From a virus (taxonomy: Duplodnaviria > Heunggongvirae > Uroviricota > Caudoviricetes), in the IMG/VR virus record IMGVR_UViG_2822641076_000001, positions 57,830 to 121,829 of that record: 64,000 bases of DNA; one strand, 5' to 3'. Below the pieces are notes generated by a model. That model had not been told where the DNA came from. It was given only the letters and a program-made list of their open reading frames with translations, and ran no database searches. The translations under genes were made by a program, and so were the position numbers. Positions 8,973 to 54,917 of the stretch are shown here, piece by piece (within the stretch, counting starts at the first letter, position 1; every line of letters begins with the position of its first letter).

Positions 8973-9003
8973 CCTCTAATATAAATTAGAGGTTTTTGTT
9001 TTC
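8973..9003 (+). terminator. rho-independent terminator (cctctaat/attagagg, then tttttgtttt)
   Basis: 8-bp stem, 4-nt loop and a T-run. Separates the early block from the first canonical motif copy. Confidence 0.7.
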
Positions 9004-9006
9004 TTT

Positions 9007-9027
9007 ACAAGTGTAAAAAATAATGAA
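9007..9027 (+). promoter_or_regulatory. canonical 21-bp phage motif ACAAGTGTAAAAAATAATGAA (putative phage-specific promoter)
   Basis: Exact copy 9 bp upstream of the SD of the SSB-like gene. Confidence 0.5.
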
Positions 9028-9035
9028 TTTAAGGA

Positions 9036-10106: not shown

Positions 10107-10123
10107 GCCGTTAACTTATACTT

Positions 10124-10144
10124 ACAAGTGTAAAAAATAATGAA
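10124..10144 (+). promoter_or_regulatory. canonical motif copy
   Basis: cttACAAGTGTAAAAAATAATGAA, followed by a 7-bp hairpin (10160-10184) and a second degenerate copy (10185-10206). Confidence 0.5.
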
Positions 10145-10222
10145 TTACATACGTGGAGGGGAGAAGTATGTCCTTTTCTTCTCCACAAATATAAAAAATA
10201 ATTGAAAAGAGAGCGTGATTGA

Positions 10223-11338
10223 ATGTCATTTTTACATGCATTAAACCCGAATAAAGTCAAAGCAGAATTAGAACAATATCTCATGTGTTTGTTTGCACCA
10301 AGTAAGTTTGGTAAAACAACATTTCTATATGATTTAGCTAAGAAGTATTACGGTGGAGATTTAAGTAAGATGTTACTACTTGGTACAGAAGTAGGTTATA
10401 AAGCTTTAAATGGAATCCATGCACTTCCAATCTCTGTTTTCGAGTATGTAGATGAAGTAGATGAAGATGAGGACGAAGAAACAAAAGAAGAGAAGACTGA
10501 CAATGATGCAAGGGGATTCGTTGAGGTTATTGATGAGTTAATTGAGAACCGTAAGACAATTCCGTACAAGCTAATTGTTATTGATACAATTACAGCTCTT
10601 GAGGACTTAGCGGAAAAGCATATCATCAAAAGACAGAAGATTAAGTCTACTGCGAAAATTGAGGATATTTCTGATATCGCATACGGTAAGGGCTACAACT
10701 TAGTTGCAGATGCAATTTATGAGCAAATCGACCGTTTAAAGAAAGCAGGATTCGGAGTATTCATCATCGGTCACAGTAAAACAAAGAAAGTCGAGCAACG
10801 TGATGGTTCTTCTTATGATTTAACTACACTTAACTGTTTAGGTAAAACATCAGACATTATCCTTCGTGAAAGTGACTTAATCATCTATGGTGACTTAGTA
10901 ACAACAGCTAAGAAAGGTATCGCTAAATCAGACCGTTACTTACGATTCCGTTCAGAAGGTAATGTAATCTGTGGTTCACGTTTCCGTCATATGCCTGACA
11001 AAATCAATAACAGCGTTGATGAGTTCTTAGAAGCATTTGAGAATGCAGTTCTAAAGGAATATGATAACGATGAAAAAGCTGTAGAGAAAGCAAAAGTTGA
11101 GCAACAAGCGGAGACTGAGCGCCAAGCTGAGAAGTTCGCTAAAACTCAAAAGGCTGAAATGACAGCAGAAGAAATGCACGCTTGGTTGAAAGAGAGCATT
11201 GGTACTTTGAAACCAGTTCAAAAGCGTAAATTAAAAGGAATCTTTGAGAAGACTCTAGGTACTACTGACTACACAAGTGTAGAAGATGTAGACGTATTAA
11301 AACAAGGTGTGGAAGCTGTTAAGGAATTAATCGGCTGA
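10223..11338 (+). CDS. RecA-fold ATPase, AAA_24/Sak4-like (371 aa)
   Basis: Walker A APSKFGKTTF and Walker B LIVIDTITALED. The size and motif layout fit phage Sak4-type recombination ATPases. Confidence 0.45.
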   Translation: MSFLHALNPNKVKAELEQYLMCLFAPSKFGKTTFLYDLAKKYYGGDLSKMLLLGTEVGYKALNGIHALPISVFEYVDEVDEDEDEETKEEKTDNDARGFVEVIDELIENRKTIPYKLIVIDTITALEDLAEKHIIKRQKIKSTAKIEDISDIAYGKGYNLVADAIYEQIDRLKKAGFGVFIIGHSKTKKVEQRDGSSYDLTTLNCLGKTSDIILRESDLIIYGDLVTTAKKGIAKSDRYLRFRSEGNVICGSRFRHMPDKINNSVDEFLEAFENAVLKEYDNDEKAVEKAKVEQQAETERQAEKFAKTQKAEMTAEEMHAWLKESIGTLKPVQKRKLKGIFEKTLGTTDYTSVEDVDVLKQGVEAVKELIG

Positions 11339-25008: not shown

Positions 25009-26145
25009 ATGCAGTTCACTTTAGCAGATTATAAGAAGTTTCAACTTGAAAAAGAAGAGGGCTACATTACTGAGAAACGACATCCTTGGTTTAAGAATCT
25101 AGTAATTCTCAATTACACGAACCGAGCAGTTGTTGACCGTCGATGGAACAACGAAACGATGATGGCACGAGGATTAATCCTTGATACGAATACATTAGAG
25201 GTAGTTGCTAAGCCGTTTCCAAAGTTCTTTAATATGGATGAGAATTTAGAGTATCAGCGTGATATTCCACGATGTGACTGTAATCCACCAACGCTAACCG
25301 TGAAGCAGGATGGTTCACTAGGTATCAGTTACATGATGGGTAATGCTTTATTTTGGGCTACTAGAGGTTCTTTTGAATCCAAACAGGCATTTATTGCGAA
25401 TGAGATTTGGGATAGAAAATATGCTACCAAAATCATTAAGGATGAAAAGCTCCGTGAAACGCTACGAGGAATCACTTTATTAGTTGAAATCATTGACCCT
25501 AAGACACGAATTGTCGTGGATTACGAAGGAATGTCTGACTTAATTCTTATTGGAGCTGTTGACATTCGAGGTAAGTTCCCGATTGATTTAACAATGGATT
25601 CGTTAAAAGCTATTGGTCAAATGTTAGATATGCCTGTGACCGAGCAAGTAGATTTAACAATAGATGAAGCAATCAAAATGAAGAGTGAAATTCCTGCTAA
25701 TGAAGAAGGTTGGGTATTGCAGTGGGATAATGGCAAGCGATTGAAAGTAAAGGGCGATGATTATATGGCTGTACACCGTGTAGCTTATGGATTATCACTC
25801 AAGCGAAAACTAGAGGCTTGGCACACTGGCAAAATGAAAGAATTAATCGAGCAAGTTCCCGAAGAGTTCCGTAAAGAAGTAGAAGCATTCCAAGATAATT
25901 GGGACGCACTTGCTATGACAATTACTGAAAACCTTCAATACATATTAGATGAGTGTCTTGCTAATGCAGAGACTCGTAAAGATTTTGCTACAAATGTAAA
26001 AAATAATGAATCTCTAGAGAAAAGATATCAATCTCTAATCTTCACTGGTTATGACACGAAGAAGATTAACATTGATGTAATCAAGATGTATATCTACAAA
26101 AACTACAGAGATTTCATCGAAGAGGGAGAAGAAGAAGATGCTTAA
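25009..26145 (+). CDS. ATP-dependent RNA ligase, T4 Rnl1 (RnlA)-like (378 aa)
   Basis: Motif I [10 protein letters not shown] aligns with T4 Rnl1 KEDGSLVSTY. Upstream ARGLILD...[15 protein letters not shown] matches [43 protein letters not shown] matches KGSIKSEQALMAN. Motif IV/V is [16 protein letters not shown]. Size matches Rnl1. Confidence 0.8.
   Translation: [378 protein letters not shown]
25990..26010 (+). promoter_or_regulatory. intragenic motif copy (ACAAaTGTAAAAAATAATGAA) inside the RNA ligase CDS, 128 bp before the kinase/HD gene
   Basis: The element is encoded within ...[13 protein letters not shown]... A possible internal promoter. Confidence 0.4.
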
Positions 26146-27142
26146 ATTCATGATGATGGTAGGCATCCCTGCAAGCGGAAAATCAACGTTCGCAGAGCTT
26201 CTAGCGGAACAAGATGACGCAATTCTACTTTCCTCTGACGTTGTTGGTAAAGAGTTACATGGTGAAGACAATGAACGCAATAACGAAGAGGTGTTTGCTC
26301 TAATGTTTGAGCGAACCGTAGAAGCTCTAATGCAAGGGAAGAGTGTTGTATATGATGCAACAAATATCAATCGTAACCGTAGAATCGGATTACTTCAACG
26401 ACTTAACCGTACTTTCAAAGCAACTGGTGCTATGAAGTTTGTATACTACATTAATACGGCTGTTGAGGTAGCTCTTTTAGATAATGGATTAAGAGGAAAA
26501 CCAGTACCACCTTTCGTGATTGAGCGCTCGTACAAGAGTTTAAATGTGCCAATCAAAGAGGAAGGTTGGGATGATGTATATATCATTCAGCGCCAAGAAG
26601 GTGTGTTTGATATTGAAGACCGCAAAGACATTATGAAGATTGTTCAAAGTGGCGGAACTCATGAGGAAATCATGACAGGTCTTATGGGGTATTTCCCTGA
26701 GTTCCTAGCCATGTATAACATGCCACAGGACTCGAAATATCATTCATTCTCTGTGAGTCGTCATGTATACCATGTATACAAATATGTCTTTGACAACTTT
26801 GATAATGGGAGTGAATATGACCGATTAGTGATGCTGTGGACTGCACTGCTTCATGATATCGGCAAACCATACTGTAAGAATTTTGAGAGCCGTGACGGTG
26901 AGGAAACACGCTATGCAAACTTCATCTCACATGAGAACGTAGGAGCGCAAATAGCTAGCTCAATTCTTGCTAAAGCAGTACATAATGATGATTTTATCCT
27001 TCAAGTTACTAAGCTGATTCAGTTCCATATGGTTCTGTTGAATGCAGGTGAAAAAGGAAAGAATCGACTAAGACGATTAGTTGGAGATAAAACATATGAG
27101 ATGCTAGAAATCTTGCGAGATGCAGATACTCTAGCACACTAA
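26138..27142 (+). CDS. polynucleotide 5'-kinase (P-loop) fused to an HD-domain phosphohydrolase (334 aa)
   Basis: N-terminal Walker A GIPASGKST (compare T4 Pnk GCPGSGKST). C-terminal HD signature WTALLHDIGKP with downstream His/Asp residues. Confidence 0.6.
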   Translation: MLKFMMMVGIPASGKSTFAELLAEQDDAILLSSDVVGKELHGEDNERNNEEVFALMFERTVEALMQGKSVVYDATNINRNRRIGLLQRLNRTFKATGAMKFVYYINTAVEVALLDNGLRGKPVPPFVIERSYKSLNVPIKEEGWDDVYIIQRQEGVFDIEDRKDIMKIVQSGGTHEEIMTGLMGYFPEFLAMYNMPQDSKYHSFSVSRHVYHVYKYVFDNFDNGSEYDRLVMLWTALLHDIGKPYCKNFESRDGEETRYANFISHENVGAQIASSILAKAVHNDDFILQVTKLIQFHMVLLNAGEKGKNRLRRLVGDKTYEMLEILRDADTLAH

Positions 27143-29751: not shown

Positions 29752-30030
29752 GTGGAAAAGTTATTACTAGAATTATTGCCGATTATTGCAACAGTATTCT
29801 TATCAATCTGTTATATCCCTCAGATTGTTAAAAACTATAAGACTAAAGATGTTAGTAGCATCTCATTATGGTTTTGGGTATTGTTAAACATTGCATTAAC
29901 TCTTATGTTCACAAATGCATTTATGATTTATAACAAATTTGGAACATATGGCTATCTGATTACAGAGACGTTTAACTTAGGGCTAGCTATGATAGTACTT
30001 ATTCAAGTGTTGATTTATCGAAAGAAATAA
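29752..30030 (+). CDS. membrane protein (92 aa, GTG start)
   Basis: GAAGGAGGTG SD. Three TM helices. Confidence 0.5.
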   Translation: MEKLLLELLPIIATVFLSICYIPQIVKNYKTKDVSSISLWFWVLLNIALTLMFTNAFMIYNKFGTYGYLITETFNLGLAMIVLIQVLIYRKK

Positions 30031-30230: not shown

Positions 30231-31307
30231 ATGGAAAAACAAATTATAGAATCAGCAAAACAAAACATTATAAAAATAGTAGACTCTTTAGAAGTTTCAA
30301 ATATAGACCAAGTTTACAGTGATGTTGTGAAATACTTAGACTTTGCAAAGGCTTATAGCCAACTACCTCATATCATCAATGGGTTAAATGAAGTGAGTGA
30401 AGAAGCGAATGAGCCTAATCAATCAAATGTCGTTAATTTAAGTGGAGATACAATTCAGCTACATACGGAGAACAAAATTGAGGGTTACGAGTTTAAGAGA
30501 AACATCAAAGGTGGCTATTTAGATGGAACGGATATATATGTTCCCGAAAAGTTCATCAGAGAACTTGGACTACAGCATGGAGACATTGTTAAAGCCGATA
30601 AGATTGGTGAAAAGCGATATAAATATACTGTGTTAGATGATTGTGGTTGTGATAGTTTATCCGATGTAATTTCGATTAAGATGGCTGTCGTAGAATACGA
30701 CCCTTCAAGTAATCGCTATACAGCTAGTAAGGATTGGATGGATAATCCTATTATGATTAACGGTCATAAAGCAGAGATTATTATCTCAGACAATGACTTT
30801 AGAAACTTTAGCATCATGACAGGGGATATTATTGATATCAGCGTAGATAAAAATGACCTTGATTTCAGTCGTGTTGTTTGGAAACATGCAACAACGGATG
30901 AATACAATAGACAGTATACATCAAGTATTAAAAGAGAACCTAAGAAGCCTATCATAGAGAAGAAGAAGCATGAGCAATTCTTCGCAGGTAAAAAGATTGT
31001 TATGGTTGGATTTGATGTAGAGAAAGCTAGTTTCAGAGATGCAGTTGAAAGACATGGTGGACAATTTGAATGTCTTCACGGAATGGAAGATGAATCAAGA
31101 TTTGAGGCAACTATGAAGGATGCAGATGCAGTTGTGCTAATGCTGAGCTTCGTTAAACATAGAGCTACTATCTTAGCAAATCAACTATGTAAAGATAATG
31201 GTATTCCATGTGATTCTTTACACACCAAGGGTAAAAGTGGATTTGTAAGAATGGCAAAAGAACTAATAGATAAGAAAGCAAAAGAGGTACATGTTACCTT
31301 AAAATAA
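30231..31307 (+). CDS. hypothetical protein (358 aa)
   Basis: Long ORF. The C-terminal region (KKIVMVGFDVEKASFRDAVERHGG...) is possibly Rossmann-like, but no confident call. Confidence 0.5.
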   Translation: MEKQIIESAKQNIIKIVDSLEVSNIDQVYSDVVKYLDFAKAYSQLPHIINGLNEVSEEANEPNQSNVVNLSGDTIQLHTENKIEGYEFKRNIKGGYLDGTDIYVPEKFIRELGLQHGDIVKADKIGEKRYKYTVLDDCGCDSLSDVISIKMAVVEYDPSSNRYTASKDWMDNPIMINGHKAEIIISDNDFRNFSIMTGDIIDISVDKNDLDFSRVVWKHATTDEYNRQYTSSIKREPKKPIIEKKKHEQFFAGKKIVMVGFDVEKASFRDAVERHGGQFECLHGMEDESRFEATMKDADAVVLMLSFVKHRATILANQLCKDNGIPCDSLHTKGKSGFVRMAKELIDKKAKEVHVTLK

Positions 31308-31312
31308 TTATC

Positions 31313-31354
31313 ACAAGTGTAAATAATAATAAATAATGCAATAAATAATGAAAA
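31313..31354 (+). promoter_or_regulatory. expanded motif copy (ACAAGTGTAAATAATAATAAATAATGCAATAAATAATGAAAA)
   Basis: The motif with its AATAAT unit reiterated, followed by a 16-bp hairpin at 31361-31425 and another variant at 31423-31442. Confidence 0.4.
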
Positions 31355-31360
31355 CTTGTA

Positions 31361-31425
31361 GTGTTGGTGGTTAGAAGATGCTTTGCTTCTATCGTAAGGA
31401 AGGTGTCTTCTAATCACCAACCACA
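31361..31425. other. long hairpin: 18-nt arms (gtgttggtggttagaaga / tcttctaatcaccaaccaca) with a 27-nt loop containing aaggaaggtg
   Basis: 16 Watson-Crick pairs and one mismatch. No T-tract. Sits between two motif copies. Confidence 0.55.
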
Positions 31426-31461
31426 GGTGTTAAAAATAATGGTTTGAGGTAGGTGTTTAAA

Positions 31462-31614
31462 TTGCCTGTAGTTGCAGGTTTCATCTTAATTGGCGTTGCT
31501 CTTATATCTATTGCAATGGTTCTTGGAAAGTTAGGAATCTTAGACAAGATTGAGAAGACGTCAGGAAAAGCAAAGAACACATTAAAAAAAGAAGAGAAAA
31601 AGGAGAGTATTTAA
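31462..31614 (+). CDS. small membrane protein (50 aa, TTG start), candidate partner of the SPFH protein
   Basis: GGTAGGTG SD. One TM helix then a K/E-rich tail. Ends 2 nt before the SPFH gene. Confidence 0.35.
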   Translation: MPVVAGFILIGVALISIAMVLGKLGILDKIEKTSGKAKNTLKKEEKKESI

Positions 31615-31616
31615 CA

Positions 31617-32450
31617 ATGGCAATGAAAAAAGGTGCAGTAATTTTCTTAGCAGGTAGTATTTTTGTAGGCGGTATTGTGGGTATGTGTACAACTAAAATT
31701 TCGCAAGGTCAAGCAGGTGTTGTTTACAGTGCAAGCGGTGGAGTTAAAGGTGAAACATTATCTCAAGGTTGGCAAACAGTATCTCCATTTAGCCGAGTTA
31801 CAGAGTATCCGATTTCTACATCTACAGTTAACTACAAGGATTTAGCAATCGCTACGAAAGACGGTAAGCCGTTAACAATGGAGATTACATACGACTACTT
31901 CAATGATGTAGAGAAATTACCTCATATCTTCAACAAGTTCAAAGGTGCAAAGCCTGAGGCAATTGAAGATTCATGGTTAAAATCACGTCTAAAAGAGAGT
32001 GCTTTATCTGTAACATCTAAGTACACGATTCTAGAAGTATTCCAAAACCGTGAAAATATCCGTACTGAAATCCAAAAGAGATTCCAAGAGGATGTTAAGA
32101 AGCATGGATTCATTGTTGAGAATGTAACTTTAGGTAATCCAAAAGCTGACGGTCAAACTGAGCAAGCATTACAGAAAGTAATTGACCGACAACAAGAATT
32201 AGAAGCTTTAGAGATTGAGAAGAAGCAAGCTGTTGTTAAAGCTGAGAAGAAGATTGAAGAAGCAAAAGGTGAAGCTGAGTCTAAGCGTATTCAATCAGAA
32301 GCAGAAGCAAAAGCCAATGAAACTGTTAAGCAATCATTATCTCCTGAGATTGTGAACTACGAATCAATCAAGAAGTGGGATGGTAAATTACCAAGCGTTA
32401 CAGGCGGAGCAACACCAATGGTAACAATTCCTCAAGGTGAAAATAAGTAA
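31617..32450 (+). CDS. SPFH/band-7 (stomatin/HflC-like) membrane protein (277 aa)
   Basis: N-terminal TM helix AVIFLAGSIFVGGIVGMC followed by an SPFH core (QGQAGVVYS...GWQTVSPFSRVTEYPISTSTVNYKDLAIATKDGKPLTMEITYDY) and a C-terminal coiled coil. Confidence 0.6.
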   Translation: MAMKKGAVIFLAGSIFVGGIVGMCTTKISQGQAGVVYSASGGVKGETLSQGWQTVSPFSRVTEYPISTSTVNYKDLAIATKDGKPLTMEITYDYFNDVEKLPHIFNKFKGAKPEAIEDSWLKSRLKESALSVTSKYTILEVFQNRENIRTEIQKRFQEDVKKHGFIVENVTLGNPKADGQTEQALQKVIDRQQELEALEIEKKQAVVKAEKKIEEAKGEAESKRIQSEAEAKANETVKQSLSPEIVNYESIKKWDGKLPSVTGGATPMVTIPQGENK

Positions 32451-32512
32451 TTAACCTACTATGGAGCGGAATCTTCTGCTCCATAGTTTAATGAATAAAA
32501 AGGAGTGTTGAA

Positions 32513-33337
32513 ATGAAGAAGAAGTTAATCAGCGCAACTTTAGCAGGCTTAATTATTGGCGGTGGTATCAGTGGAGCTGTAGTTCATCAAGCTTTCCCAA
32601 AGGAAGTTGTGAAGACTGAGGTTAAAACTGAACAGGTTGGTTCATTGGCTAAGCAAAATGCTATGGCTACCCTATGGACTCAATCATCTGCTGAGGCAAA
32701 CGCATTGCGTTTACAAGCGTATAACGTTGCTAAAGAGCGTGTAGATGAAGCTGTGAAAAATGGAATCGTTCATAAGGCTGTAGTACTCGATATTGATGAA
32801 ACAATTATCAACAATATGGACTACATGGCGTGGGCTGTAAAGAATGAGAAGAAATTCCCTGACCAATGGTCTGAGTGGATTAAATCTGCTCAAGGTGAAG
32901 AGATTGCAGGAGCAGTTGATTTCATTAAACATGCACAAGCAAATGGTGTAGAAGTATTCTTAGTTTCTAACCGAGACAAGAGCGAGATGGAAGGTACTCT
33001 AGAGAATCTGAAAAAGATTGGTTTAGGAGATATCGACCGTGAGCATATCATGCTAAAAGACAAGAGCTCTAGTAAGCAAGAACGCATGGATATGGTAGAA
33101 GTCAATCACAATGTATTACTGTACATTGGAGACAATCTAGCTGACCATAGCGATGATTTTTACAAGAAGAATGTCTCAGAGCGTGCAGAAGCACTGAAAG
33201 CTCATAAGGATGACTTCGGTACTAAATATATCATTCTTCCAAACTCTGCATATGGCGAGTGGGAAGGAACTATCTATAATCATGATTACAGCAAAGACCA
33301 AAATAAAGCACGAATGGATGCTTTAAAAGGATTCTAA
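32513..33337 (+). CDS. secreted or membrane-anchored HAD-IIIB acid phosphatase, 5'-nucleotidase e(P4)/class-B family (274 aa)
   Basis: Signal/TM segment, then motif I VVLDIDETIINN (DxDET), motif III FLVSNRD and motif IV IGDNLADHSDDF. Confidence 0.6.
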   Translation: MKKKLISATLAGLIIGGGISGAVVHQAFPKEVVKTEVKTEQVGSLAKQNAMATLWTQSSAEANALRLQAYNVAKERVDEAVKNGIVHKAVVLDIDETIINNMDYMAWAVKNEKKFPDQWSEWIKSAQGEEIAGAVDFIKHAQANGVEVFLVSNRDKSEMEGTLENLKKIGLGDIDREHIMLKDKSSSKQERMDMVEVNHNVLLYIGDNLADHSDDFYKKNVSERAEALKAHKDDFGTKYIILPNSAYGEWEGTIYNHDYSKDQNKARMDALKGF

Positions 33338-33357
33338 CAAGTGTAAAAAATAATGAA
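33337..33357 (+). promoter_or_regulatory. canonical motif copy directly upstream of nrdI
   Basis: ACAAGTGTAAAAAATAATGAA ends 16 nt before the nrdI start. Head of the nucleotide-metabolism operon. Confidence 0.5.
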
Positions 33358-33372
33358 TTGGAGTTGGCTGAA

Positions 33373-33750
33373 TTGCTTATTGTGTATGACTCAAAGACGA
33401 AGAACGTTGAGAGATTTGTGCAAAAGCTAGACATGCCCAACACAAAGATTCATAGAGACTTAGTGGTTAGTGAGAAGTTCGTCCTGATTACATATACGAC
33501 GGGCTTCGGAGCTGTCCCTAAGTCTACTATTGATTTTTTGAGAAATAACCCCAAGCACGCTGAAAACATCGTAGGTGTTTGTGCTAGTGGCAACAAAAAT
33601 TGGGGCATGAGATTCGCTTTTAGTGCCGACAGAATCTCAGAGGAGTTTGAAGTAAATATATTGCACAAATTCGAGATGTCGGGGCTAGACAGCGACGTTG
33701 AAAAAGTTAAATCAGAGGTGAAGCGAATTTGGCAAAATATTACGAACTGA
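33373..33750 (+). CDS. nrdI: NrdI flavodoxin-like protein (125 aa, TTG start)
   Basis: MLIVYDSKTKNVERFVQKL... is typical of the NrdI N-terminus. GGAG SD 8 nt before the TTG at 33373 (the track starts at the TTG at 33358). The 3' end overlaps nrdE. Confidence 0.7.
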   Translation: MLIVYDSKTKNVERFVQKLDMPNTKIHRDLVVSEKFVLITYTTGFGAVPKSTIDFLRNNPKHAENIVGVCASGNKNWGMRFAFSADRISEEFEVNILHKFEMSGLDSDVEKVKSEVKRIWQNITN

Positions 33751-35837
33751 ATAATGAAGTAAAAATTGAGAAAGATGGAAGATTCCAATTCGAGAAAGAC
33801 TTGGAAGCAGTAAAGAGTTACTTTGTAGACCATGTTAACCAAAACATGCAATACTTCCATACTCTCAATGAACAATTAGAGTACATGTTTGGTGATAATT
33901 CAACCGAATCAATCTACTATGACAAGAAAATCTTTGACATGTATAAATTCGAAGAGGTAGAAGAAATCTTCAAATATGTATACGATAAGGAATTTAGATT
34001 TGCATCATTCATGTCGGCATTTAAATTCTACAACAATTACTCGTTGAAGACAGATGATGGTACACGATACCTAGAGCGATATGAAGACCGAGTAGCTGTA
34101 AATGCATTGTTCTTTGGTAAAGGTGATGTGGAGAAGGCTAAGAGGTTTGCAACTGTATTAATCCAACAAGATTATCAGCCTGCAACGCCCACGTTCTTGA
34201 ATGTAGGAAGATATCGTGGTGGTAAATATGTATCATGTTTCCTTTTAGATACACAGGATACAACAGAAAGTATCTTCTATGCTCTGCAATCAGCAGGTCA
34301 CTTGTCACGTATGGGTGGAGGAGTTGCAATCAACTTATCTAAATTACGTAGTGCAGGAGAAGATATTAGTGGAACTGAGAATGCCTCTAAGAGTGTTGTT
34401 GGCGTAGCTAAATTATTTGAAGGTGTATTCAATCAGTTCGACCAAAAAGGTCAACGTAAAGGTGCAGGAGCGGTTTACTTAAACATCTTCCATCCTGATA
34501 TTATCGAGTTCTTGTCTACGAAAAAGATTAATGCCGATGAGAATATTCGATTAAAAACACTTTCTCTTGGTCTTATTATTCCAAACAAGTTCTATGAGCT
34601 TGCTGAGAAGAATGAACCGTACTTTACATTCTATCCTAATAGTGTCCGTAAAGAGTATGGAATTTATTTAGATGACATGGACATGGATGAATGGTATGAG
34701 AAGTTGCTTAATAACCCACGAGTACGTAAGAAGCAAATGCTTCCTGCTCGTAAGATGCTTACAGATATCGCTAAAACTCAAATTGAGAGTGGTTATCCAT
34801 ACCTAATCAATATTGATAATGCGAATGAGCAACACACGCTTAAAGGGTTGGGAAAAGTCAAAATGTCTAATTTGTGTGTGGAAATTTTCCAACTGCAAAC
34901 TGAGTCTGATATCCAAGGATACAAGGGTGAAGATAAGTTTGGATACGATGTTAACTGTAATCTAGGTTCTATCAACATCGTAAATGTTATGGAAAATAAG
35001 AATATTAAAGAAGCTGTACGATTAGCAGTTAACGCTTTGACGACAGTATCTATTGAATCTGCAATTGATGAAGTACCAACTGTTAAGAAAGCAAATGAAG
35101 CACTTCATTCTGTTGGTCTTGGAGCTATGAACCTACATGGATATTTAGCTAAGAATAAAATCCTGTACAGTAGCGAATATGCACGAGACTTTGCGAACAC
35201 ATTCTTTATGATGATGCGTTTCTATGCATTAGAAGAGAGTAATGACATAGCTAAAGAACTGGGCGAAACATTTACAGGATTTGAGAAGAGTGAGTACGCA
35301 AACGGAAATGCTCTCAAGAAATACTTGGAAAAGAGTTTTGCTCCGAAGACTGAGAAAGTACAGAAATTGTTTGAGGGAATTTATATTCCAACTCAAGAGG
35401 ACTGGGCTGAATTAAATGAAAAGATTTTGAAGCACGGACTGTTTAATGCTTATAACATGGCAATCGCTCCGACTCAATCCATCTCATATGTTCAGAACGC
35501 TACTCAAAGTGTACTTCCTGTCATCGAACCAATCGAGACTCGTACATACGAAGATAGTACAACGCATTATCCAATGCCGTACATCTCAAATGAGAATTTC
35601 TTCTTCTACCAATCAGCATATGACGTTGATATGTATAAGCTGATTGACTTAATGGCGGTAATTCAAGGTCACGTTGACCAAGGAATTTCAACAACATTAT
35701 ATGTAGATGGAATGACAACGACGACACGAGATTTAGCTAGATACTTTATCTATGCACAGAAAAAAGGACTGAAATCTCTGTACTATACACGTACAAAGAA
35801 ATCAGATATCAGCGAATGTAGTTCATGTTCAGTTTAA
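33729..35837 (+). CDS. nrdE: ribonucleotide reductase class Ib large subunit (702 aa, TTG start)
   Basis: Active-site NLCVEI, C-terminal CSSCSV thiol pair and overall NrdE length. Continuous ORF with no intein or intron gap. Confidence 0.9.
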   Translation: MAKYYELNNEVKIEKDGRFQFEKDLEAVKSYFVDHVNQNMQYFHTLNEQLEYMFGDNSTESIYYDKKIFDMYKFEEVEEIFKYVYDKEFRFASFMSAFKFYNNYSLKTDDGTRYLERYEDRVAVNALFFGKGDVEKAKRFATVLIQQDYQPATPTFLNVGRYRGGKYVSCFLLDTQDTTESIFYALQSAGHLSRMGGGVAINLSKLRSAGEDISGTENASKSVVGVAKLFEGVFNQFDQKGQRKGAGAVYLNIFHPDIIEFLSTKKINADENIRLKTLSLGLIIPNKFYELAEKNEPYFTFYPNSVRKEYGIYLDDMDMDEWYEKLLNNPRVRKKQMLPARKMLTDIAKTQIESGYPYLINIDNANEQHTLKGLGKVKMSNLCVEIFQLQTESDIQGYKGEDKFGYDVNCNLGSINIVNVMENKNIKEAVRLAVNALTTVSIESAIDEVPTVKKANEALHSVGLGAMNLHGYLAKNKILYSSEYARDFANTFFMMMRFYALEESNDIAKELGETFTGFEKSEYANGNALKKYLEKSFAPKTEKVQKLFEGIYIPTQEDWAELNEKILKHGLFNAYNMAIAPTQSISYVQNATQSVLPVIEPIETRTYEDSTTHYPMPYISNENFFFYQSAYDVDMYKLIDLMAVIQGHVDQGISTTLYVDGMTTTTRDLARYFIYAQKKGLKSLYYTRTKKSDISECSSCSV

Positions 35838-35881: not shown

Positions 35882-36856
35882 ATGCATAAAGCAGTTAACT
35901 GGAACATTGAAGAAGATAGTTTTACACAGATGTTTTGGCAACAAAACGTTGCTCAATTTTGGCTAGATACGGAAATTCCTATTTCCAATGATTCAAAGTC
36001 TTGGAGATTACTATCTCCCGAACAACAAGAGACTTATAAGAAAGTATTAGGTGGTTTAACACTACTAGATACCAAGCAATCTATCGCAGGGATGCCTAAG
36101 ATTTCTGAACATATTCCCGATTTACAGCGTAAAGCAGTTCTATCATTCATGGGAACTATGGAAGCAGTACATGCAAAATCTTATTCTACTATTTTTACAA
36201 CACTTATCAGTCCACAAGAAATCGACGAAGTGTTTGAGTGGGTAAACGAACATCCACGACTGCAACAAAAAGCAGACCGCATTGATAGTTTATATCAGAA
36301 TATCAATGATGAGTTAAGCCTTTATATGGCTATGGTAGCAAGTGTATTCCTAGAAAGTTACTTATTCTATAGTGGATTCTTCTATCCTCTGTATCTTGCA
36401 GGTCAAGGAAAGATGGTTGCTAGTGGTGAGATTATCAATCTAATTTTACGTGATGAAAGTATTCACGGGGTTTATGTTGGTCTTCTAGCTCAGGAAGTAT
36501 TCGAAGAGCTAACAGAAGAAGAGAAACAACATGCACACAATATGGTAATCGAGTTATTAGAAGAATTGATGGAAATTGAGTTCCGCTACACTGAGGAAAT
36601 CTATGCTCCAATTGGTTTAGACCACGAAGTAAAGAATTTCTTACAGTACAACGCTAATAAAGCGATGATGAATCTAGGTCTTGAGCCAATTTATGAAGAG
36701 AAGAAGATTAATCCTATCGTTGAGAATGGGTTGAAGACTGATACGAAGAACCATGATTTCTTCTCAACTAAAGGTAATGGCTATTTAAAAGCTATTTACG
36801 AAGATTTAAATGATGATGATTTCCACTTCCCACAATTGGAAGCTGAAAATAAATAA
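35882..36856 (+). CDS. nrdF: ribonucleotide reductase class Ib small subunit (324 aa)
   Basis: Di-metal ligand motifs EAVHAKSYS and DESIHG. Correct size. Confidence 0.9.
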   Translation: MHKAVNWNIEEDSFTQMFWQQNVAQFWLDTEIPISNDSKSWRLLSPEQQETYKKVLGGLTLLDTKQSIAGMPKISEHIPDLQRKAVLSFMGTMEAVHAKSYSTIFTTLISPQEIDEVFEWVNEHPRLQQKADRIDSLYQNINDELSLYMAMVASVFLESYLFYSGFFYPLYLAGQGKMVASGEIINLILRDESIHGVYVGLLAQEVFEELTEEEKQHAHNMVIELLEELMEIEFRYTEEIYAPIGLDHEVKNFLQYNANKAMMNLGLEPIYEEKKINPIVENGLKTDTKNHDFFSTKGNGYLKAIYEDLNDDDFHFPQLEAENK

Positions 36857-37993: not shown

Positions 37994-38014
37994 ACAAGTG
38001 TAAAAAATAATGAA
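37994..38014 (+). promoter_or_regulatory. canonical motif copy followed by a cccctc-gtaat-gagggg hairpin (38020-38036)
   Basis: Same motif-then-hairpin-then-SD arrangement as at recJ. Confidence 0.5.
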
Positions 38015-38054
38015 TTTATCCCCTCGTAATGAGGGGAAGCGGAGGGAAAACACA

Positions 38055-38777
38055 ATGACAAAATTAAAGAAAAAGAAAAACTATTACAAAGCAGGCGAGT
38101 TAGTAACTCTAAAGGAAACTAAGGAGACTGTGAAAGTTAAAGATGTAAATCTTACTAGCTATGAAGCTACTGTTACATTCAAGGATGGCAAAGAGAAAGT
38201 TGTTAAGTTATGGGACATCCGTAAGTTGCCAATTCGCAAAGATTCTCACAAGGACACTGTGTTATTTGCACGAGTTCGTGAGGATGCAATTATCCCAACT
38301 AAGCGTGATGAAGATGCAGGATTTGATTTATATGCGAACCTAGAGACTGCACGAGTGGTTCAAGAAGGGGAAGAGCAAGTTCATGTACGTGAGCTATTGC
38401 TTCCAAAAGGTAGACCGACGTTAGTACCAACAGGTATTGCAACATCTATGCTTCCTAAGTACTACATGAATCTTAAACACGAACGTGGTTCTACTGGGAA
38501 AGTAGGCATGAACATTTTAAGTGGTGTCGTGGATAGTGGATACCGTGGAGAAATCTTCATCAATATCGTTCCTCTTTACAAGGATATCGTTCTTACATCT
38601 GCCGTAACAGAAGTTGAAGAGCATGAGAATATGATTCTTTACCCATACAACAAGGCTATTGCTCAAGCAACAATTGAGTATGTGCCACCAGTACGAGTGA
38701 AGGAAATTTCATTTGAAGAATTAAAAGCAATTCCGTCTGAACGTGGTGAAGGCAAGTTAGGTTCAAGCGGTAAATAA
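38055..38777 (+). CDS. dut: dUTPase with about 60 aa of N-terminal extension (240 aa)
   Basis: All five dUTPase motifs: AGFDLYA, ERGSTGKVG, GVVDSGYRGE, AIAQATIE and ERGEGKLGSSGK. GGAGGGAAAA SD before the ATG at 38055. Confidence 0.85.
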   Translation: MTKLKKKKNYYKAGELVTLKETKETVKVKDVNLTSYEATVTFKDGKEKVVKLWDIRKLPIRKDSHKDTVLFARVREDAIIPTKRDEDAGFDLYANLETARVVQEGEEQVHVRELLLPKGRPTLVPTGIATSMLPKYYMNLKHERGSTGKVGMNILSGVVDSGYRGEIFINIVPLYKDIVLTSAVTEVEEHENMILYPYNKAIAQATIEYVPPVRVKEISFEELKAIPSERGEGKLGSSGK

Positions 38778-38797: not shown

Positions 38798-39253
38798 ATG
38801 GCATACGAAAATACAGGCGCAAAGAAGATTTATTTAGCATCACCTTTCTTCTGTGAGGAAGAAATTGAAAGAGTAGCATTCATGGAGAAGTTGTTACGTG
38901 AACAAGGATTCGATGTATTCTCTCCACGAGAAAATCAATTCGACCAGTACGAACTTTTCTCAAAAGAGTGGCGTGAAGCAGTTTACTTAAATGATATGAA
39001 ACACCTAATGGAAGCTGATATGGTAGTAGCTATTTATGATGGTGAAGGCGAAGGTTCTGACCAAGGAACAATCTTTGAAGTTGGAGCAGGTATCGTAGCA
39101 GGTAAATTTGTGATTGTATTCACAGAGAAGCATGATGGCATCAACTTAATGCTTACTGACTCTTGTCACGCATTCCTAAAAGGTCGTCAAGAAGCTCTAG
39201 ATTATGACTGGAAGAACCTACCGACTAACTACTGGCATGGCGGAGTTCGCTAA
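38798..39253 (+). CDS. nucleoside 2-deoxyribosyltransferase (151 aa)
   Basis: KIYLASPFF (NDT N-terminal motif) and the catalytic-Glu region DQGTIFEVGAG. Confidence 0.65.
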   Translation: MAYENTGAKKIYLASPFFCEEEIERVAFMEKLLREQGFDVFSPRENQFDQYELFSKEWREAVYLNDMKHLMEADMVVAIYDGEGEGSDQGTIFEVGAGIVAGKFVIVFTEKHDGINLMLTDSCHAFLKGRQEALDYDWKNLPTNYWHGGVR

Positions 39254-39321: not shown

Positions 39322-39993
39322 ATGGCTATTATCTGTGTAGGTGGAATGATTTCTTTAGGGAAATCTAGCATGGCTAAATTATTAGGTGAAACATTAGAAA
39401 GTGAAGTGTTCTACGAATCAGTAGACAACAACCCTGTATTGGAGCGATTCTATACAGCAAGCAAAGAGGAAGCAGAAGCAGAGCGCTTAACATTCCTATT
39501 ACAACTATGGTTCTTGAATACGAGATTTGATTCTATCAAGAAAGCCTTGATACATTCTCATAACGTATTAGACCGCAGTATCTATGAAGATATCTATTTC
39601 ATGAAGCGTAATCAGCAATATGGACGATTAATTGGAGAAAACCGCATTACTGATTTAGAGGAAACAATCTACATGGGACTCTTTGAGAACATGATGGAAG
39701 AGCTTGAGGAGTTACCAAAGAAATCTCCTGACCTTATGGTCTACCTAAAAGGAAGCTTTGAAACAGTATTATATAGAATCAAGCAACGTGGACGTGAGTT
39801 TGAATTAGATGAAAAGCTAATCGAGTACTACAGATTCCTATGGGAAGAATACGACGAGTGGGTAATGAAACACTACAAAGCTAGCGAAGTCTTAATCATT
39901 GATGTAGACAATCTAGATTATGTTCACAACGAAAAGGACAAAGAGTATGTAGTGAAGCTTGTAAAAGAGAAATTAGAAGAATTAGGTATCTAG
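39322..39993 (+). CDS. deoxynucleoside kinase (dAK/dGK family; 223 aa)
   Basis: P-loop ICVGGMISLGKSS, the DRS motif LDRSIYEDIYF, and the lid region RIKQRGRE. Confidence 0.7.
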   Translation: MAIICVGGMISLGKSSMAKLLGETLESEVFYESVDNNPVLERFYTASKEEAEAERLTFLLQLWFLNTRFDSIKKALIHSHNVLDRSIYEDIYFMKRNQQYGRLIGENRITDLEETIYMGLFENMMEELEELPKKSPDLMVYLKGSFETVLYRIKQRGREFELDEKLIEYYRFLWEEYDEWVMKHYKASEVLIIDVDNLDYVHNEKDKEYVVKLVKEKLEELGI

Positions 39994-40006: not shown

Positions 40007-41197
40007 GTGCAGATTTTAATGTCAGTATTAGGTCTTATTGGTCTAATAGGATTAGCATTCTTGCTATCTGAAAATAAGAAGAAAATTAAGTGGCGAACAA
40101 TTGGAACGGCTTTAGCTATGCAATTCCTATTAGCCTACCTGCTAGTAACAAGTGCAGGTCAACAAGCAATGAAATGGTTATCGGATGGCTATACAAAAAT
40201 CTCAAGCTATGCAACAGATGGAATCATGTTTGTATTTGGCGGATTCTTTAATGAGCATACAACATTTGTATTTGCAATCAATGTATTGATGGTAATCGTA
40301 TTCTTTGGAGCGTTATTCGCTGTGTTATTCTATCTGAATGTCATTCAGTTCTTTGTTAAATATGTGGGCGGTGCATTATCTAAACTACTTGGTACTACAC
40401 GAGTAGAAACATTTAGTGCAGTTATGAATATCTTTGCCTCACAAAACGAAGTTCCGACATTCATTAAACCATATCTGAAACATCTGACGAAAGCAGAACT
40501 GTTCGCAGTAATGGTTGCAGGAACAGGCTCTATGGCAGGTTCAATCTTAATTGGATACAGCTTAATGGGTATCCCGTTAGAATGGTTGCTTGTAGCATGT
40601 TTCATGGTTACAGGTTCTAGTTTATTAGTGGCAAAACTAATTGTTCCCGAAACAGAGGAGAGCCAAACGAACGGCAAGATTGAGCTTGACCGTAAGCAAG
40701 GTTCAGCTAATATTTTTGAAGCAATTTCAAATGGTGCAATGAGCGGTATGCAAATTGCTTGTGCTACAGCTACAATGCTAATTGCTTTCGTAGCATTAAT
40801 TGCATTAGTAAATGGTATCTTAGGAAACTTTGGCGTATCACTTGAGCAGTTGCTTGGATACTTATTCTATCCACTTGCATTCCTAATGAATGTAAGCCAT
40901 GACCAAGTAATGACAGCAAGTCAATTATTAGGTCAGAAGTTCGCAACGAATGAGTTTATTGCTTATTCTGCAATGGCAAAAGAGATGTCACAGATGGATA
41001 CTCGTACAATTGCTATGTTAACTATTGGTATCGGTGGCTTCGCTAACTTCTCATCTATTGGTATTTTACTGGGAAGCATTGGTGTTCTTGTTCCTGAGAA
41101 ACGAGGTATTGTTGCTAAGTACGGACTTCGTGCGATTGTAGCAGGACTTTTAGCAAATTTAATCAGTGCAACTATCGTTGGTATTTGGTTGCTGTAA
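40007..41197 (+). CDS. nupC: concentrative nucleoside transporter, NupC family (396 aa, GTG start)
   Basis: At least nine predicted TM helices. CNT signature GQKFATNEFIAYSAMA (NEF[IV]AY). AGGAGG SD. Confidence 0.75.
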   Translation: MQILMSVLGLIGLIGLAFLLSENKKKIKWRTIGTALAMQFLLAYLLVTSAGQQAMKWLSDGYTKISSYATDGIMFVFGGFFNEHTTFVFAINVLMVIVFFGALFAVLFYLNVIQFFVKYVGGALSKLLGTTRVETFSAVMNIFASQNEVPTFIKPYLKHLTKAELFAVMVAGTGSMAGSILIGYSLMGIPLEWLLVACFMVTGSSLLVAKLIVPETEESQTNGKIELDRKQGSANIFEAISNGAMSGMQIACATATMLIAFVALIALVNGILGNFGVSLEQLLGYLFYPLAFLMNVSHDQVMTASQLLGQKFATNEFIAYSAMAKEMSQMDTRTIAMLTIGIGGFANFSSIGILLGSIGVLVPEKRGIVAKYGLRAIVAGLLANLISATIVGIWLL

Positions 41198-41201
41198 CAT
41201 G

Positions 41202-41235
41202 GAGAGAGGGGAGAAATCCTCTCTCTTTTTATTTG
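41202..41235 (+). terminator. rho-independent terminator (gagagagg/cctctctc, then ttttt a tttg)
   Basis: 8-bp stem and T-run directly after the nupC stop. End of the nucleotide operon. Confidence 0.7.
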
Positions 41236-44179: not shown

Positions 44180-44368
44180 ATGAAATCTAGAGAACGTTTA
44201 GAGGTTGTAGGAAATTTTCAAAAGAAGACAACATGGTCTCATAGCAATGGATTTAAACAGAAATTATTCTTGAATGGTTTAGAGGTTGAGAACTACTTTA
44301 ACGGATTCGCAGGAAAAACGGTTAAGGTGACAGTCGAAGTCATAGATAGCCTTTCAAAGAATGATTGA
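44180..44368 (+). CDS. hypothetical protein (62 aa)
   Basis: TAGGAGAG SD. Confidence 0.45.
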   Translation: MKSRERLEVVGNFQKKTTWSHSNGFKQKLFLNGLEVENYFNGFAGKTVKVTVEVIDSLSKND

Positions 44369-44408
44369 AGAAAAGTACGATTTTATCCAACAAAGGAGCG
44401 AAACATCA

Positions 44409-45131
44409 ATGGTGAGTTTAATTGATTTAAGCAAGAAAGCACAGATAGTTTTAGAGAAAAAGGAAATCTTCGGTGAAAAGGCTCAAGTTGCAGTAGTCGA
44501 TGATATCTCTATTTCTATGGAAACACTCTACATGAACGGCACAATGCAAGAGCTAAACGATAGATTGCTAAGTATCGGTATGAATCTAGACGTCGATAAG
44601 AGCATTGATGTATTTGCGTTCGGTAAGCATTCACATGAGATTGGCACTGTAACAGAAGGGAATTATCAAGGGTTCATTAACAATGTTCTGCTACGAAAAG
44701 TGTCACTTGAAAGCTATACATACTACGCAGGAGTCATGGATAGAATCGTGAAGAAGTATGGTCAACCTGTGCAGAAACAAGGATTCCTTTCACGGCTAAT
44801 TGGAAGTAAACCTGCTGAAAAACCAACTGTGCCTACATTAGTATTCTTTGTAACAGACGGTGATAACTTTGACAAAGATGAAGCTGAAAAAATTATCCGT
44901 GAATCATCAAATCAAGCAATCTTTTGGCAGTTTATCGGAATTGGAAGAGCGAAATTTGAGTTCTTGGATAAGCTTAATAAAATGTCAGGAAGATTTCTAG
45001 ATAATGCAAACTTCTTCCACGTTAATGACTTACGTCAAATCAGTGATGAAGAGTTTATGAATAGAGTGCTAAATGAATTTCCACAGTGGATTAAAGAGGC
45101 ACGAAATAAAGGTGTGCTACAGGAGGGCTAA
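44409..45131 (+). CDS. von Willebrand factor A (vWA)-like protein (240 aa)
   Basis: MIDAS-like DxSxS in AVVDDISISMETL, plus a downstream TDGD motif. AAGGAG SD before the ATG at 44409 (the track starts at 44361). Confidence 0.4.
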   Translation: MVSLIDLSKKAQIVLEKKEIFGEKAQVAVVDDISISMETLYMNGTMQELNDRLLSIGMNLDVDKSIDVFAFGKHSHEIGTVTEGNYQGFINNVLLRKVSLESYTYYAGVMDRIVKKYGQPVQKQGFLSRLIGSKPAEKPTVPTLVFFVTDGDNFDKDEAEKIIRESSNQAIFWQFIGIGRAKFEFLDKLNKMSGRFLDNANFFHVNDLRQISDEEFMNRVLNEFPQWIKEARNKGVLQEG

Positions 45132-54335: not shown

Positions 54336-54917
54336 ATGGCTGAATTGCAGTATATTCACACAACAATGAACGGTCGAAAATCAGCAGAGCTTATCATGCG
54401 AGTTTTCAGCTTACAAGGACAACAGAAAGAGGTTCTTGTATTCAAGCCAAAGTTAGATACACGAGATGGAGATGCAGTTAAATCACGAGCATTGGACACT
54501 GAAATTCCTGCAACATTAGTTGGTGGAGAAGAAAAAGGCAAGATGTTTGAATTAGCGAAGAAGCATCGTCCGCTTTACATCTTTGTTGATGAAGCTCAGT
54601 TCTTAACAACAGAGCAAGTACTAGAATTAGTAAGCATTGTTGATGAATTGAAGATTGATGTGTACAGTTATGGACTGCTAGTTGATTTCAGAGGAGTTCT
54701 ATTTGAAGGCTCTAAAGCATTAATTGAGAATGCTGATACAATCTCCGATATGCCTAACGTGTGCATCTATTGTACAAATAAAGCAATCCGCAACATGCGA
54801 TTACTTAATAGTAGACCAGTGTTCCACGGAGAAGTGGTTCAAGTCGGTTTCGAAGAGAGTTATCGTAGCATTTGTCGTGAATGCTATAACTCTTTCCAAG
54901 CTACCTCTCAAATGTAA
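54336..54917 (+). CDS. tdk: thymidine kinase with atypical P-loop and C-terminal zinc ribbon (193 aa)
   Basis: TK framework: LVFKPKLDTRDG, FVDEAQFL, GLLVDFRG and CxxC...CRECYNSF. The P-loop reads TTMNGRKSAELI where TK has GPMFSGKSTELI. Confidence 0.65.
   Translation: MAELQYIHTTMNGRKSAELIMRVFSLQGQQKEVLVFKPKLDTRDGDAVKSRALDTEIPATLVGGEEKGKMFELAKKHRPLYIFVDEAQFLTTEQVLELVSIVDELKIDVYSYGLLVDFRGVLFEGSKALIENADTISDMPNVCIYCTNKAIRNMRLLNSRPVFHGEVVQVGFEESYRSICRECYNSFQATSQM

Follow-up and report, generated by a model that had tools for sequence, protein, structure and literature searches.

Why should a bacteriophage carry a gene for a phosphatase that looks built to work outside the cell it infects? The question is posed by a short run of genes at positions 31,462 to 33,337 of a 64,000-nt stretch of viral DNA (positions 57,830-121,829 of the IMG/VR record IMGVR_UViG_2822641076_000001), which we call the window and whose own positions serve as coordinates throughout. 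Three open reading frames (ORFs) follow one another there on the plus strand: a membrane peptide of 50 residues, a protein of the SPFH family and a phosphatase of the e(P4) type. The original prediction, made from the sequence alone, took the three as a set encoded together. The reading we favor, with confidence somewhat better than even, takes the set apart. It sees an SPFH pair that stands by itself and, next to it, a class C nucleotidase cassette whose product would be exported and would serve the salvage of external nucleoside monophosphates (NMPs) and their deoxy counterparts (dNMPs).

The identity of the enzyme is the firmest part of the argument. The gene (32513..33337, plus strand) encodes 274 residues, and on the evidence of sequence and structural model the assignment of its product to the class C acid phosphatases, as an e(P4)-family 5'-nucleotidase, is solid. 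In a profile search Acid_phosphat_B (PF03767) matched at E=4e-42 and 144.7 bits, against a cut-off of 27, and the TIGR01533 equivalog for e(P4)-family 5'-nucleotidases scored 278 bits against a cut-off of 216, aligning with residues 1-274 of the 274. The three HAD-IIIB motifs that the original prediction had picked out are all present: DIDET (D93-T97), SNRD (S152-D155) and GDNLADH (G206-H212). In an alignment of 25 sequences D93, D95, S152, K188, D207 and D211 are invariant. The aspartates among them are the four catalytic ones, while S152 and K188 are the motif II serine and motif III lysine of the HAD fold. Among solved structures the best relative is the Bacillus anthracis class C acid phosphatase (Protein Data Bank (PDB) code 2I33, E=1.4e-56), followed by the P4 enzymes of Pasteurella and Haemophilus (3ET4, E=1.6e-42).

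Structure prediction points the same way. An AlphaFold2 model built from the 25-sequence alignment has a predicted local distance difference test (pLDDT) score mostly above 90 in its core. Foldseek matched this model to 2I33 at E=1.9e-22, with a target-normalized template-modeling (TM) score of 0.82 and ~37% identity over the structural alignment. The model superposes on 2I33, 3PCT and 3ET4 alike at a target-normalized TM score of ~0.8, and the class B enzyme AphA is much more distant (E ~3e-3). Aligned to 3ET4, residues F115, W119 and Y247 of the phage protein fall on F86, W91 and Y221 of P4, which we take to be the aromatic clamp that binds the base. In the 25-sequence alignment Y247 never varies and W119 hardly does, and the structural matches in the PDB include P4 entries with nicotinamide mononucleotide (NMN), 5'-AMP and 2'-AMP. 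From its family membership we would predict a bona fide Mg-dependent class C nucleotidase. Class C enzymes are 5' or 5'/3' nucleotidases or NMN nucleotidases, and they are broad-spectrum phosphomonoesterases (PMC11729948).

With the B. anthracis enzyme (2I33/2I34) and e(P4)/Hel of Haemophilus influenzae (3ET4, 3OCU-3OCY), then, the phage protein shares family, fold and the four aspartates of the bipartite DxDET...GDNLxD signature, together with a phenylalanine, a tryptophan and a tyrosine at the P4 aromatic positions and an expected location outside the cytoplasm. Unlike them it is encoded by a phage, is only ~36-45% identical to its cellular homologs and lacks the lipobox cysteine; and unlike e(P4)/Hel it is partnered by NrdIEF, dNK, Ndt and NupC, not by genes for NAD uptake. 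Because each cellular homolog found stands at 44% identity or below, the gene is not a recent capture from a host.

The expected location rests on the first residues of the protein. The N-terminus reads MKKKLISATLAGLIIGGGISGAVVHQAF: residues 1-27 consist of MKKK and a 20-residue hydrophobic, glycine-rich segment, residues 28-45 are a charged linker, and the HAD-IIIB domain occupies residues 45-274. That segment is the sole hydrophobic one in the protein (KD19 hydropathy maximum 1.85), in keeping with the signal- or anchor-type N-terminus proposed at the outset, and the AlphaFold2 model leaves residues 1-43 outside the folded domain. Most of the aligned homologs have a lipobox cysteine (...SC or ...TC) at the N-terminal site. 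This lipoprotein trait of e(P4) is missing from the phage phosphatase, which has no cysteine in residues 1-60 and so is not a lipoprotein. Clostridial homologs and the phage homologs are likewise Cys-less, and we read the N-terminus as a probable Cys-less signal or anchor of the clostridial kind. The positive-inside rule would have the catalytic domain face outward, and an outside location is most likely.

Two relatives of the carrier phage reveal how the gene behaves. One, L007, is a 152.9-kb IMG/VR viral genome collinear with the window (~88-96% nucleotide identity over aligned blocks, 91-94% around the locus); the other, L002, is a 151-kb contig from a Bacillus cereus assembly at NCBI. In L007 the phosphatase is absent, and cleanly so. 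Its positions 3146|3147 correspond by blastn to window positions 32491|33334, so that an 842-bp cassette (32492..33333, plus strand), made up of the ribosome-binding site (RBS) AAGGAG and the phosphatase ORF, is absent. The small ORF, SPFH, NrdIEF, the Dut-like gene, Ndt, dNK and NupC are all retained. Junction alignments put the left edge just past a conserved hairpin and the right edge at the NrdI leader. The hairpin (32458..32487, plus strand) has a 13-bp stem and lies after the SPFH stop and ahead of the phosphatase RBS, within the 62 nt that separate the SPFH stop from the start of the phosphatase ORF. Its centroid energy is -20.8 kcal/mol (z=-5.4 against shuffles). L007 and L002 both have the hairpin, and in L002 it is trailed by a T-run. 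A hairpin or terminator follows SPFH in phages Riley and Sundance too, and in PJN02, FADO and vB_BcoS-136 SPFH is followed by a gap with a consensus promoter and a hairpin.

L002 carries the phosphatase in the same slot as the window, and there the comparison is uneven. At the nucleotide level the core of the gene (32612-33211) is 93-95% identical between the two, SPFH ~80% and NrdI/E/F ~55-75%. The corresponding protein identities are 89-90% for the phosphatase, 80% for SPFH and 54%, 73% and 71% for NrdI, NrdE and NrdF. Synonymous divergence (dS) is 0.44 for the phosphatase and ~1.5-2 for NrdF and NrdE. Such uneven identity and dS imply an exchange of the cassette between lineages that is younger than the divergence of its flanks. 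Its GC content of 0.40, with 0.35 at third codon positions, is the same as that of its neighbors and gives no compositional sign of foreign origin. The phosphatase is under purifying selection: the ratio of nonsynonymous to synonymous change (dN/dS) against L002 is 0.15, and four near-identical contigs differ by 17-26 nucleotide changes and only 2-5 amino acid changes. The ends of the gene are more diverged from L002 than its core, at 68% nucleotide identity for 32513-32611, which codes for the signal or anchor, and 61% for 33212-33337 (the last ~40 codons), a pattern that suggests recombination breakpoints inside the gene.

A wider set of phages places the cassette in a variable slot. The Nrd backbone is syntenic in the window, PJN02, FADO, L002 and L007. 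In PJN02 and FADO the order runs gyrase, SPFH, NrdH, NrdI, NrdE, NrdF, dUTPase, and the phosphatase is not part of it. What follows SPFH differs from phage to phage: NrdH in PJN02 and FADO (L003 and L004, 7977-8222), Ndt in Bacillus phage vB_BcoS-136 (L011, 3484-3978) and the phosphatase in L002 as in the window, while L007 has no gene there. A module thus ends where SPFH ends, and what comes next is a variable site for accessory genes of nucleotide metabolism. The idea that the three genes are encoded together does not survive this, given that L007 keeps the small ORF and SPFH without the phosphatase and that PJN02 and FADO have an SPFH-Nrd-dut backbone free of it. The phosphatase is instead a mobile single-gene cassette, moron-like and independent of the SPFH pair.

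That pair deserves an account of its own. The SPFH gene (31617..32450, plus strand) encodes a 277-residue membrane protein, and the profile search against Band_7 (PF01145) settles its family: residues 27-205 match at E=2.1e-28 and 100 bits, far above the cut-off of 23.6, and phrog_200 matches at E=1.5e-70. A single hydrophobic segment spans residues 3-26 (KD19 maximum 2.1), and a stretch rich in glutamate, lysine and alanine, of helical type, lies toward the C terminus at about residues 190-240. The description "stomatin-like" fits less well. Prohibitins 1 and 2 are the only sequence matches in the PDB (E=1e-4 to 1e-3), and no NCBIfam subfamily model matches the protein. By sequence, then, it is an SPFH/Band 7 protein that seems weakly nearer to prohibitins than to stomatin. 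Against L002 it has 80% amino acid identity and a dN/dS of 0.14. The gene is commonplace in phages: tblastn found SPFH genes in 601 deposited phage records, from phages of Staphylococcus, Bacillus, Enterococcus, Pseudomonas and other hosts, with homologs variously labeled prohibitin, HflK or band 7.

Directly ahead of it lies the small ORF (31462..31614, plus strand, 50 residues), which starts with TTG. An alternative GTG at 31453 would give 53 residues; TTG at 31462 is the better start because the Shine-Dalgarno-like GAGGTAGGTG (31446-31455) is properly spaced from it. The TAA stop (31612-31614) is 2 nt ahead of the SPFH ATG, and the SPFH RBS, AAAGGAGAG, sits within the small ORF. Coordinates and hydropathy thus agree with the single-transmembrane peptide described originally, 2 nt upstream of SPFH. 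The peptide is laid out as an N-terminal transmembrane helix (one segment, KD19 maximum 2.9), GKLGILDKIEK and a basic tail rich in lysine and glutamate. Pfam, NCBIfam, PHROG and PADLOC hold no match for it. It has relatives all the same: homologous ORFs of 44-51 residues lie 0-30 nt upstream of SPFH in L002, L007, Riley (gp140), B13 (B13_44) and Sundance (Sundance_100), and they share an N-terminal transmembrane segment, a G-K-x-G-[IV]-[FL]-[ED] motif and a basic tail. A hidden Markov model (HMM) built from four other phages matched only the small ORF among the window's 535 ORFs (E=2.9e-6, next best 0.17), passing over the many other small hydrophobic ones. Its carriers include Bacillales phages unrelated to one another: the myovirus Riley, B13 (a temperate phage of 37 kb) and Sundance, a phage of Brevibacillus. 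PJN02 and vB_BcoS-136 lack the small ORF, and their SPFH proteins have an N-terminal extension of ~20 residues. By these sequence comparisons the small ORF is a real, conserved gene of a phage micro-protein family found directly upstream of SPFH, and together the two form a conserved membrane module common in Bacillales phages, with a presumed role as membrane scaffold.

The pair had been likened to the NfeD-SPFH pairs of bacteria, of which YuaF-FloT and YqeZ-FloA of Bacillus subtilis are examples. Half of the likeness holds. As in those operons, a membrane protein gene lies directly upstream of the SPFH gene and is probably translationally coupled to it, and the conservation of the micro-protein-SPFH pair bears out the notion of an upstream partner. 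Homology to NfeD is another matter. Unlike its bacterial counterparts the phage peptide has no match to NfeD (PF01957) or to anything else in the Pfam scan. Some 27 residues remain after the transmembrane segment in the 50- or 53-residue ORF, and 50 residues are presumably too few for the OB-fold domain of NfeD. The peptide is an analogue at most. Closer in design is MbpV-MbpS of the Kayvirus Staphylococcus phage K, a pair to which no function is assigned (PMC7150955). There too a small protein with an N-terminal transmembrane segment and a positively charged C-terminal part adjoins a phage SPFH membrane protein, but MbpV has 102 residues and lies near lysis genes (PMC7150955), whereas the window pair sits between replication and nucleotide genes. 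The resemblance is one of architecture, and we claim no homology.

What, then, is the phosphatase for? Its downstream neighbors offer a clue. As originally described, the gene stands immediately upstream of an nrd/dut/ndt/dnk/nupC series. Only 20 nt separate it from nrdI, and all of these genes lie on the plus strand. NrdI (33358-33750), NrdE (33729-35837) and NrdF (35882-36856) form a class Ib ribonucleotide reductase by their Pfam matches. Pfam and NCBIfam models identify a dUTPase-like protein of 255 residues (38010-38777), a nucleoside 2-deoxyribosyltransferase, Ndt, of 151 residues (38798-39253) and a deoxynucleoside kinase, dNK, of 223 residues (39322-39993). After them comes a nucleoside transporter of the NupC/CNT family (40007..41197, 396 residues; Nucleos_tra2_C E=1.6e-62), with ~9 hydrophobic segments and a terminator-like hairpin 3' of its gene (41201-41228). 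A thymidine kinase, TK, is encoded further along on the same strand (54336..54917; PF00265, E=2.5e-34), and the window also codes for a TMK-like protein. All three related phages (window, L007, L002) have NupC.

The analysis establishes the family of the enzyme, its intact catalytic and base-binding residues, the purifying selection on it, the cassette behavior of its gene and the company of NupC and the kinases; we infer its export and topology, its substrate range, the timing of its expression and the flux of its products into phage DNA. The signal or anchor would send the phosphatase through Sec, leaving the catalytic domain outside the cytoplasmic membrane, tethered there or released into the wall. 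The exported enzyme would strip phosphate from extracellular 5'- (possibly 3'-) NMPs and dNMPs, supplied for instance by lysed neighbors or by extracellular DNA (eDNA). Nucleosides set free in this way would be imported by the phage NupC and re-phosphorylated by the phage dNK and TK, with Ndt swapping bases, and the products would feed the deoxynucleoside triphosphate (dNTP) pool alongside NrdIEF and Dut, giving more precursors for a genome of ~153 kb. The chemistry has bacterial precedents. In Haemophilus, e(P4)/Hel, NadN and AphA turn external nucleotides into nucleosides that cross the membrane (PMC10694654), and in mycoplasmas 5'-nucleotidases take part in nucleotide salvage (PMC11729948). 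The auxiliary salvage genes of phages (TK, dNK, dNMP kinase, Ndt, Dut and ribonucleotide reductase) are kindred in that they control the supply of (d)NTPs, and they share the operon neighborhood; unlike those cytoplasmic enzymes, the window nucleotidase is predicted to lie outside the membrane and is paired with NupC. The 5'-deoxyribonucleotidase (Dmp) of phage T5 is a cytoplasmic phage nucleotidase.

Several observations weigh against this salvage reading. Its genes are not mutually dependent, L007 doing without the phosphatase and L002 without Ndt and dNK. A host of the B. cereus group probably has a class C enzyme of its own, to judge from the 2I33 protein of B. anthracis; the phage copy would then be dispensable and its benefit marginal or conditional. 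A strong hairpin, terminator-like in L002, stands directly upstream of the cassette, and no recognizable promoter comes after it. A scan for sigma-70 promoters was uninformative, with 39 sites where 45 were expected, and the phage codes for sigma-like factors of its own. Finally, the IMG/VR scans drawn on below were pattern-based and of limited sensitivity. Membership of the pathway is combinatorial, with no obligate link between its genes. The window has phosphatase, Ndt, dNK and NupC, L007 has Ndt, dNK and NupC, and L002 has phosphatase and NupC, which implies that each gene of the pathway is individually useful as well as dispensable.

How rare the combination is can be judged from the collections we searched. 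A tblastn search of 50,697 phage records with the phosphatase returned three matches, none from a verified phage, in line with the claim that a phage-encoded nucleotidase of this kind is unusual. Two of the three, labeled "Staphylococcus phage SA ... Kay", we rejected as phage: the records are flagged UNVERIFIED_ORG and unannotated, with several 95-214-kb contigs per "phage", and are evidently Staphylococcus aureus chromosome, holding both a host-type phosphatase and NupC. The third is a 27%-identical fragment on a 4.8-kb fecal contig. NupC itself turns up among deposited phages only in unverified, host-contaminated records. Since the phosphatase and NupC are each otherwise absent from verified deposited phages, to find them in one genome is notable. 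A library of viral structures contained no class C-type match; its best hits were remote, namely HAD/PNKP phosphatase domains and acid phosphatases of Pandoravirus. Nothing was found when 31000-34000 was compared with the phage collection by Megablast, when the exact sequence of the phosphatase was looked up, in a scan of GTDB genomes for relatives or in a single-protein pattern scan of IMG/VR, and a scan of JGI metagenomes gave only a weak fragment of 39 residues (L016). PADLOC tied none of the four proteins (small ORF, SPFH, phosphatase and NupC) to a defense system, and our literature search found no paper on a phage class C phosphatase or a phage NupC.

Only an alignment-based scan of IMG/VR did better, and it produced two contigs. 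One, L006, is a high-GC contig of 9.8 kb with 28% identity. The other, L005 (IMGVR_UViG_3300045988_160303; 91 kb, GC 0.30), encodes at 2691-3506 a class C phosphatase 46% identical to ours, with a Cys-less, signal-like N-terminus. This is the one further genuine phage setting for the enzyme that we found in IMG/VR: the gene adjoins one for a TET-associated glycosyltransferase (TAGT), and ~6 kb downstream lies a T4-type dNMP kinase (DNMK). The transporter half of the pathway recurs in L017 (IMGVR_UViG_3300045988_158547), an unrelated PolA-type phage that has TK, dNK, a 194-residue ORF with a weak methylase-like match and NupC in a row (7721-11170). Its dNK is 65% identical to that of the window, and no phosphatase was seen within 21 kb. 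The enzyme itself is a regular member of a well-known family, lacking only the lipid anchor. Its novelty lies in the carrier and the setting: a nucleotidase that is rare, laterally traded and probably exported stands beside a nucleoside importer and three salvage enzymes that act at the nucleoside level. That these amount to a complete outside-in harvesting route, formed by the exported nucleotidase, NupC, dNK/TK and Ndt, with a mobile extracytoplasmic step traded between phages, is a bolder proposition, and one we hold tentatively, at rather less than even odds.

The same chemistry might serve a different beneficiary at a different time. A plasmid-like prophage that expressed the nucleotidase and NupC would improve the scavenging of its host, a form of lysogenic conversion. 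Stand-alone contigs of ~153 kb that bear the cassette are found in several bacterial isolate assemblies, the window codes for an actin-like segregation protein (ALP_N, a weak match; 1757-2968) and an MrpR-type tyrosine recombinase/resolvase (6704-7771), and Tsamsa, the nearest named relative, is temperate (PMC3903500). Together these hint at life as a plasmid-prophage, to which the moron-like, single-gene behavior of the phosphatase would be suited. But the cassette has no recognizable promoter of its own and is embedded in the replication and nucleotide arm next to NrdIEF, a setting typical of lytic early or middle genes, and DNA replication is what its partners dNK, TK, Ndt and Dut serve. 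We consider host benefit unlikely, although it is the most credible of the rivals. A second possibility, suggested by the known substrates of the family, is that external NADP or NMN is converted to nicotinamide riboside for NAD pools, complementing NAD-reconstitution genes. The enzyme e(P4) does dephosphorylate NADP and NMN (PMC10694654), a P4-NMN complex is among the PDB matches, and the phage invests in NAD: at 60871-63923 lies an Adps-like, Macro, Namat-like trio that matches NARP1-AP, a NAD-reconstitution operon directed against aRES (bioRxiv 10.64898/2026.01.28.702374). Yet NARP1-AP acts on intracellular ADP-ribose (ADPR) and nicotinamide, the window has no PnuC or other candidate importer of nicotinamide riboside and no NadR or NMNAT, and the cassette is 27 kb from the NAD genes as against 20 nt from nrdI. 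With no PnuC, and no multi-transmembrane transporter in the window besides NupC and a three-transmembrane semiSWEET-like protein, the NMN substrate raised in the original prediction is weakened, and with it a NAD role, which we think improbable.

Phages also carry auxiliary genes of the pstS/phoA type, and by analogy the useful product might be the inorganic phosphate itself, released from external organic phosphates. Class C enzymes have the necessary breadth as phosphomonoesterases (PMC11729948), and a large phage genome makes for a high demand for phosphorus. Against this, the scanned window ORFs include no match to a phosphate transporter or the Pho regulon, and hydropathy shows no multi-transmembrane protein besides NupC and the semiSWEET-like one. 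NupC, dNK, TK and Ndt, moreover, all act on nucleosides, and the residues aligned with the base-binding aromatics of P4 are conserved. We rank phosphate scavenging a little below NMN or NADP processing, and lower still an arrangement, implied in the original prediction, in which the small peptide, SPFH and the phosphatase make one membrane complex, the SPFH scaffold organizing or regulating the exported enzyme. The three genes are indeed adjacent on one strand, and in the comparison of the window with L002 no genes are better conserved than SPFH and the phosphatase. But the micro-protein-SPFH pair occurs in hundreds of phages that have no phosphatase, L007 lacks the phosphatase precisely while its small ORF and SPFH are intact, a strong hairpin separates SPFH from the phosphatase, and the nucleotide identities to L002, ~80% for SPFH and ~94% for the phosphatase, imply separate histories. 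The comparative data largely refute such a complex, and we give it very little credence.

One further candidate explanation was considered. The "phage phosphatases" of the recent aRES/NARP1-AP literature do not explain 32513-33337; they are Macro-domain enzymes, and we rejected them. Adpp of NARP1-AP (bioRxiv 10.64898/2026.01.28.702374) is, like ours, a phage phosphatase, and its operon seems to be present in this very phage. Its fold is unrelated, however, being Macro where ours is HAD-IIIB, and it is a cytoplasmic enzyme that acts on ADPR-1''-phosphate in an anti-defense role. As for the genes at 60871-63923, they encode a Prs-like protein (90 bits for TIGR01251, whose cut-off of 113 it does not reach), a Macro-domain protein resembling the N-terminal part of DarG and a NAMPT-like protein, and their order is the Adps-Adpp-Namat order of NARP1-AP (bioRxiv 10.64898/2026.01.28.702374).

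Were the salvage of external nucleotides to prove right, a cell that is infected or lysogenic would live partly off nucleotides from lysed neighbors or from biofilm eDNA, and some large temperate Bacillus phages would be tapping the extracellular nucleotide pool. Auxiliary nucleotide genes of phages are normally regarded as cytoplasmic; as far as the collections and literature we searched go, this would be the first phage to extend the reprogramming of nucleotide metabolism beyond the cytoplasmic membrane. Effects would be expected on burst size in dense or biofilm populations and on the turnover of nucleotides in soil. A natural control exists: nearly isogenic phages that have the cassette (the window and L012-L015) or lack it (L007) make the idea directly testable. 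The micro-protein-SPFH pair of many Bacillales phages is, for its part, an uncharacterized module worth a name.

The window DNA is phage, and its carrier a large, temperate-type Bacillus phage with a genome of ~153 kb. All of the substantial ORFs in the window share a single coding strand, and PHROG matches include a DnaE-type polymerase, a RecJ-like exonuclease and DnaB, among others. The nearest relatives are Geobacillus virus E3 and giant siphoviruses of Bacillus that resemble Tsamsa, with 62-64% amino acid identity in the polymerase. Contigs of ~153 kb whose SPFH protein is identical to the one in the window come from two more isolate assemblies at NCBI and from one JGI metagenome, and a 39-kb Logan contig has that protein too.

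Some smaller observations concern the neighbors of the locus. The dUTPase-like protein is matched by profiles only from about residue 81 and so has an N-terminal extension of ~80 residues; the versions in L002 and L007, of 252 and 240 residues, are similar in length. The semiSWEET-like protein (29752-30030), a PQ-loop protein of 92 residues that falls below its NCBIfam cut-off and belongs to phrog_25992, is encoded two genes upstream of the locus and kept in L007 and L012-L014. It is the only transporter candidate near the salvage genes other than NupC. Between it and the small ORF, and directly upstream of the latter, 30231-31307 encodes a protein of 358 residues that combines a Rho RNA-binding-like segment with a C-terminal DUF2325 and has no PHROG family. 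At 25009-27142 a T4 Rnl1-type RNA ligase is followed, with slight overlap, by a protein with an AAA_33 kinase and an HD phosphohydrolase domain and with weak similarity to Pnkp and CCA enzymes; by sequence the two look like a tRNA-repair pair of the type that counters anticodon nucleases. Within the replication arm, 44361-45131 encodes a vWA-TerF-like protein (PF10138, E=1.4e-55).

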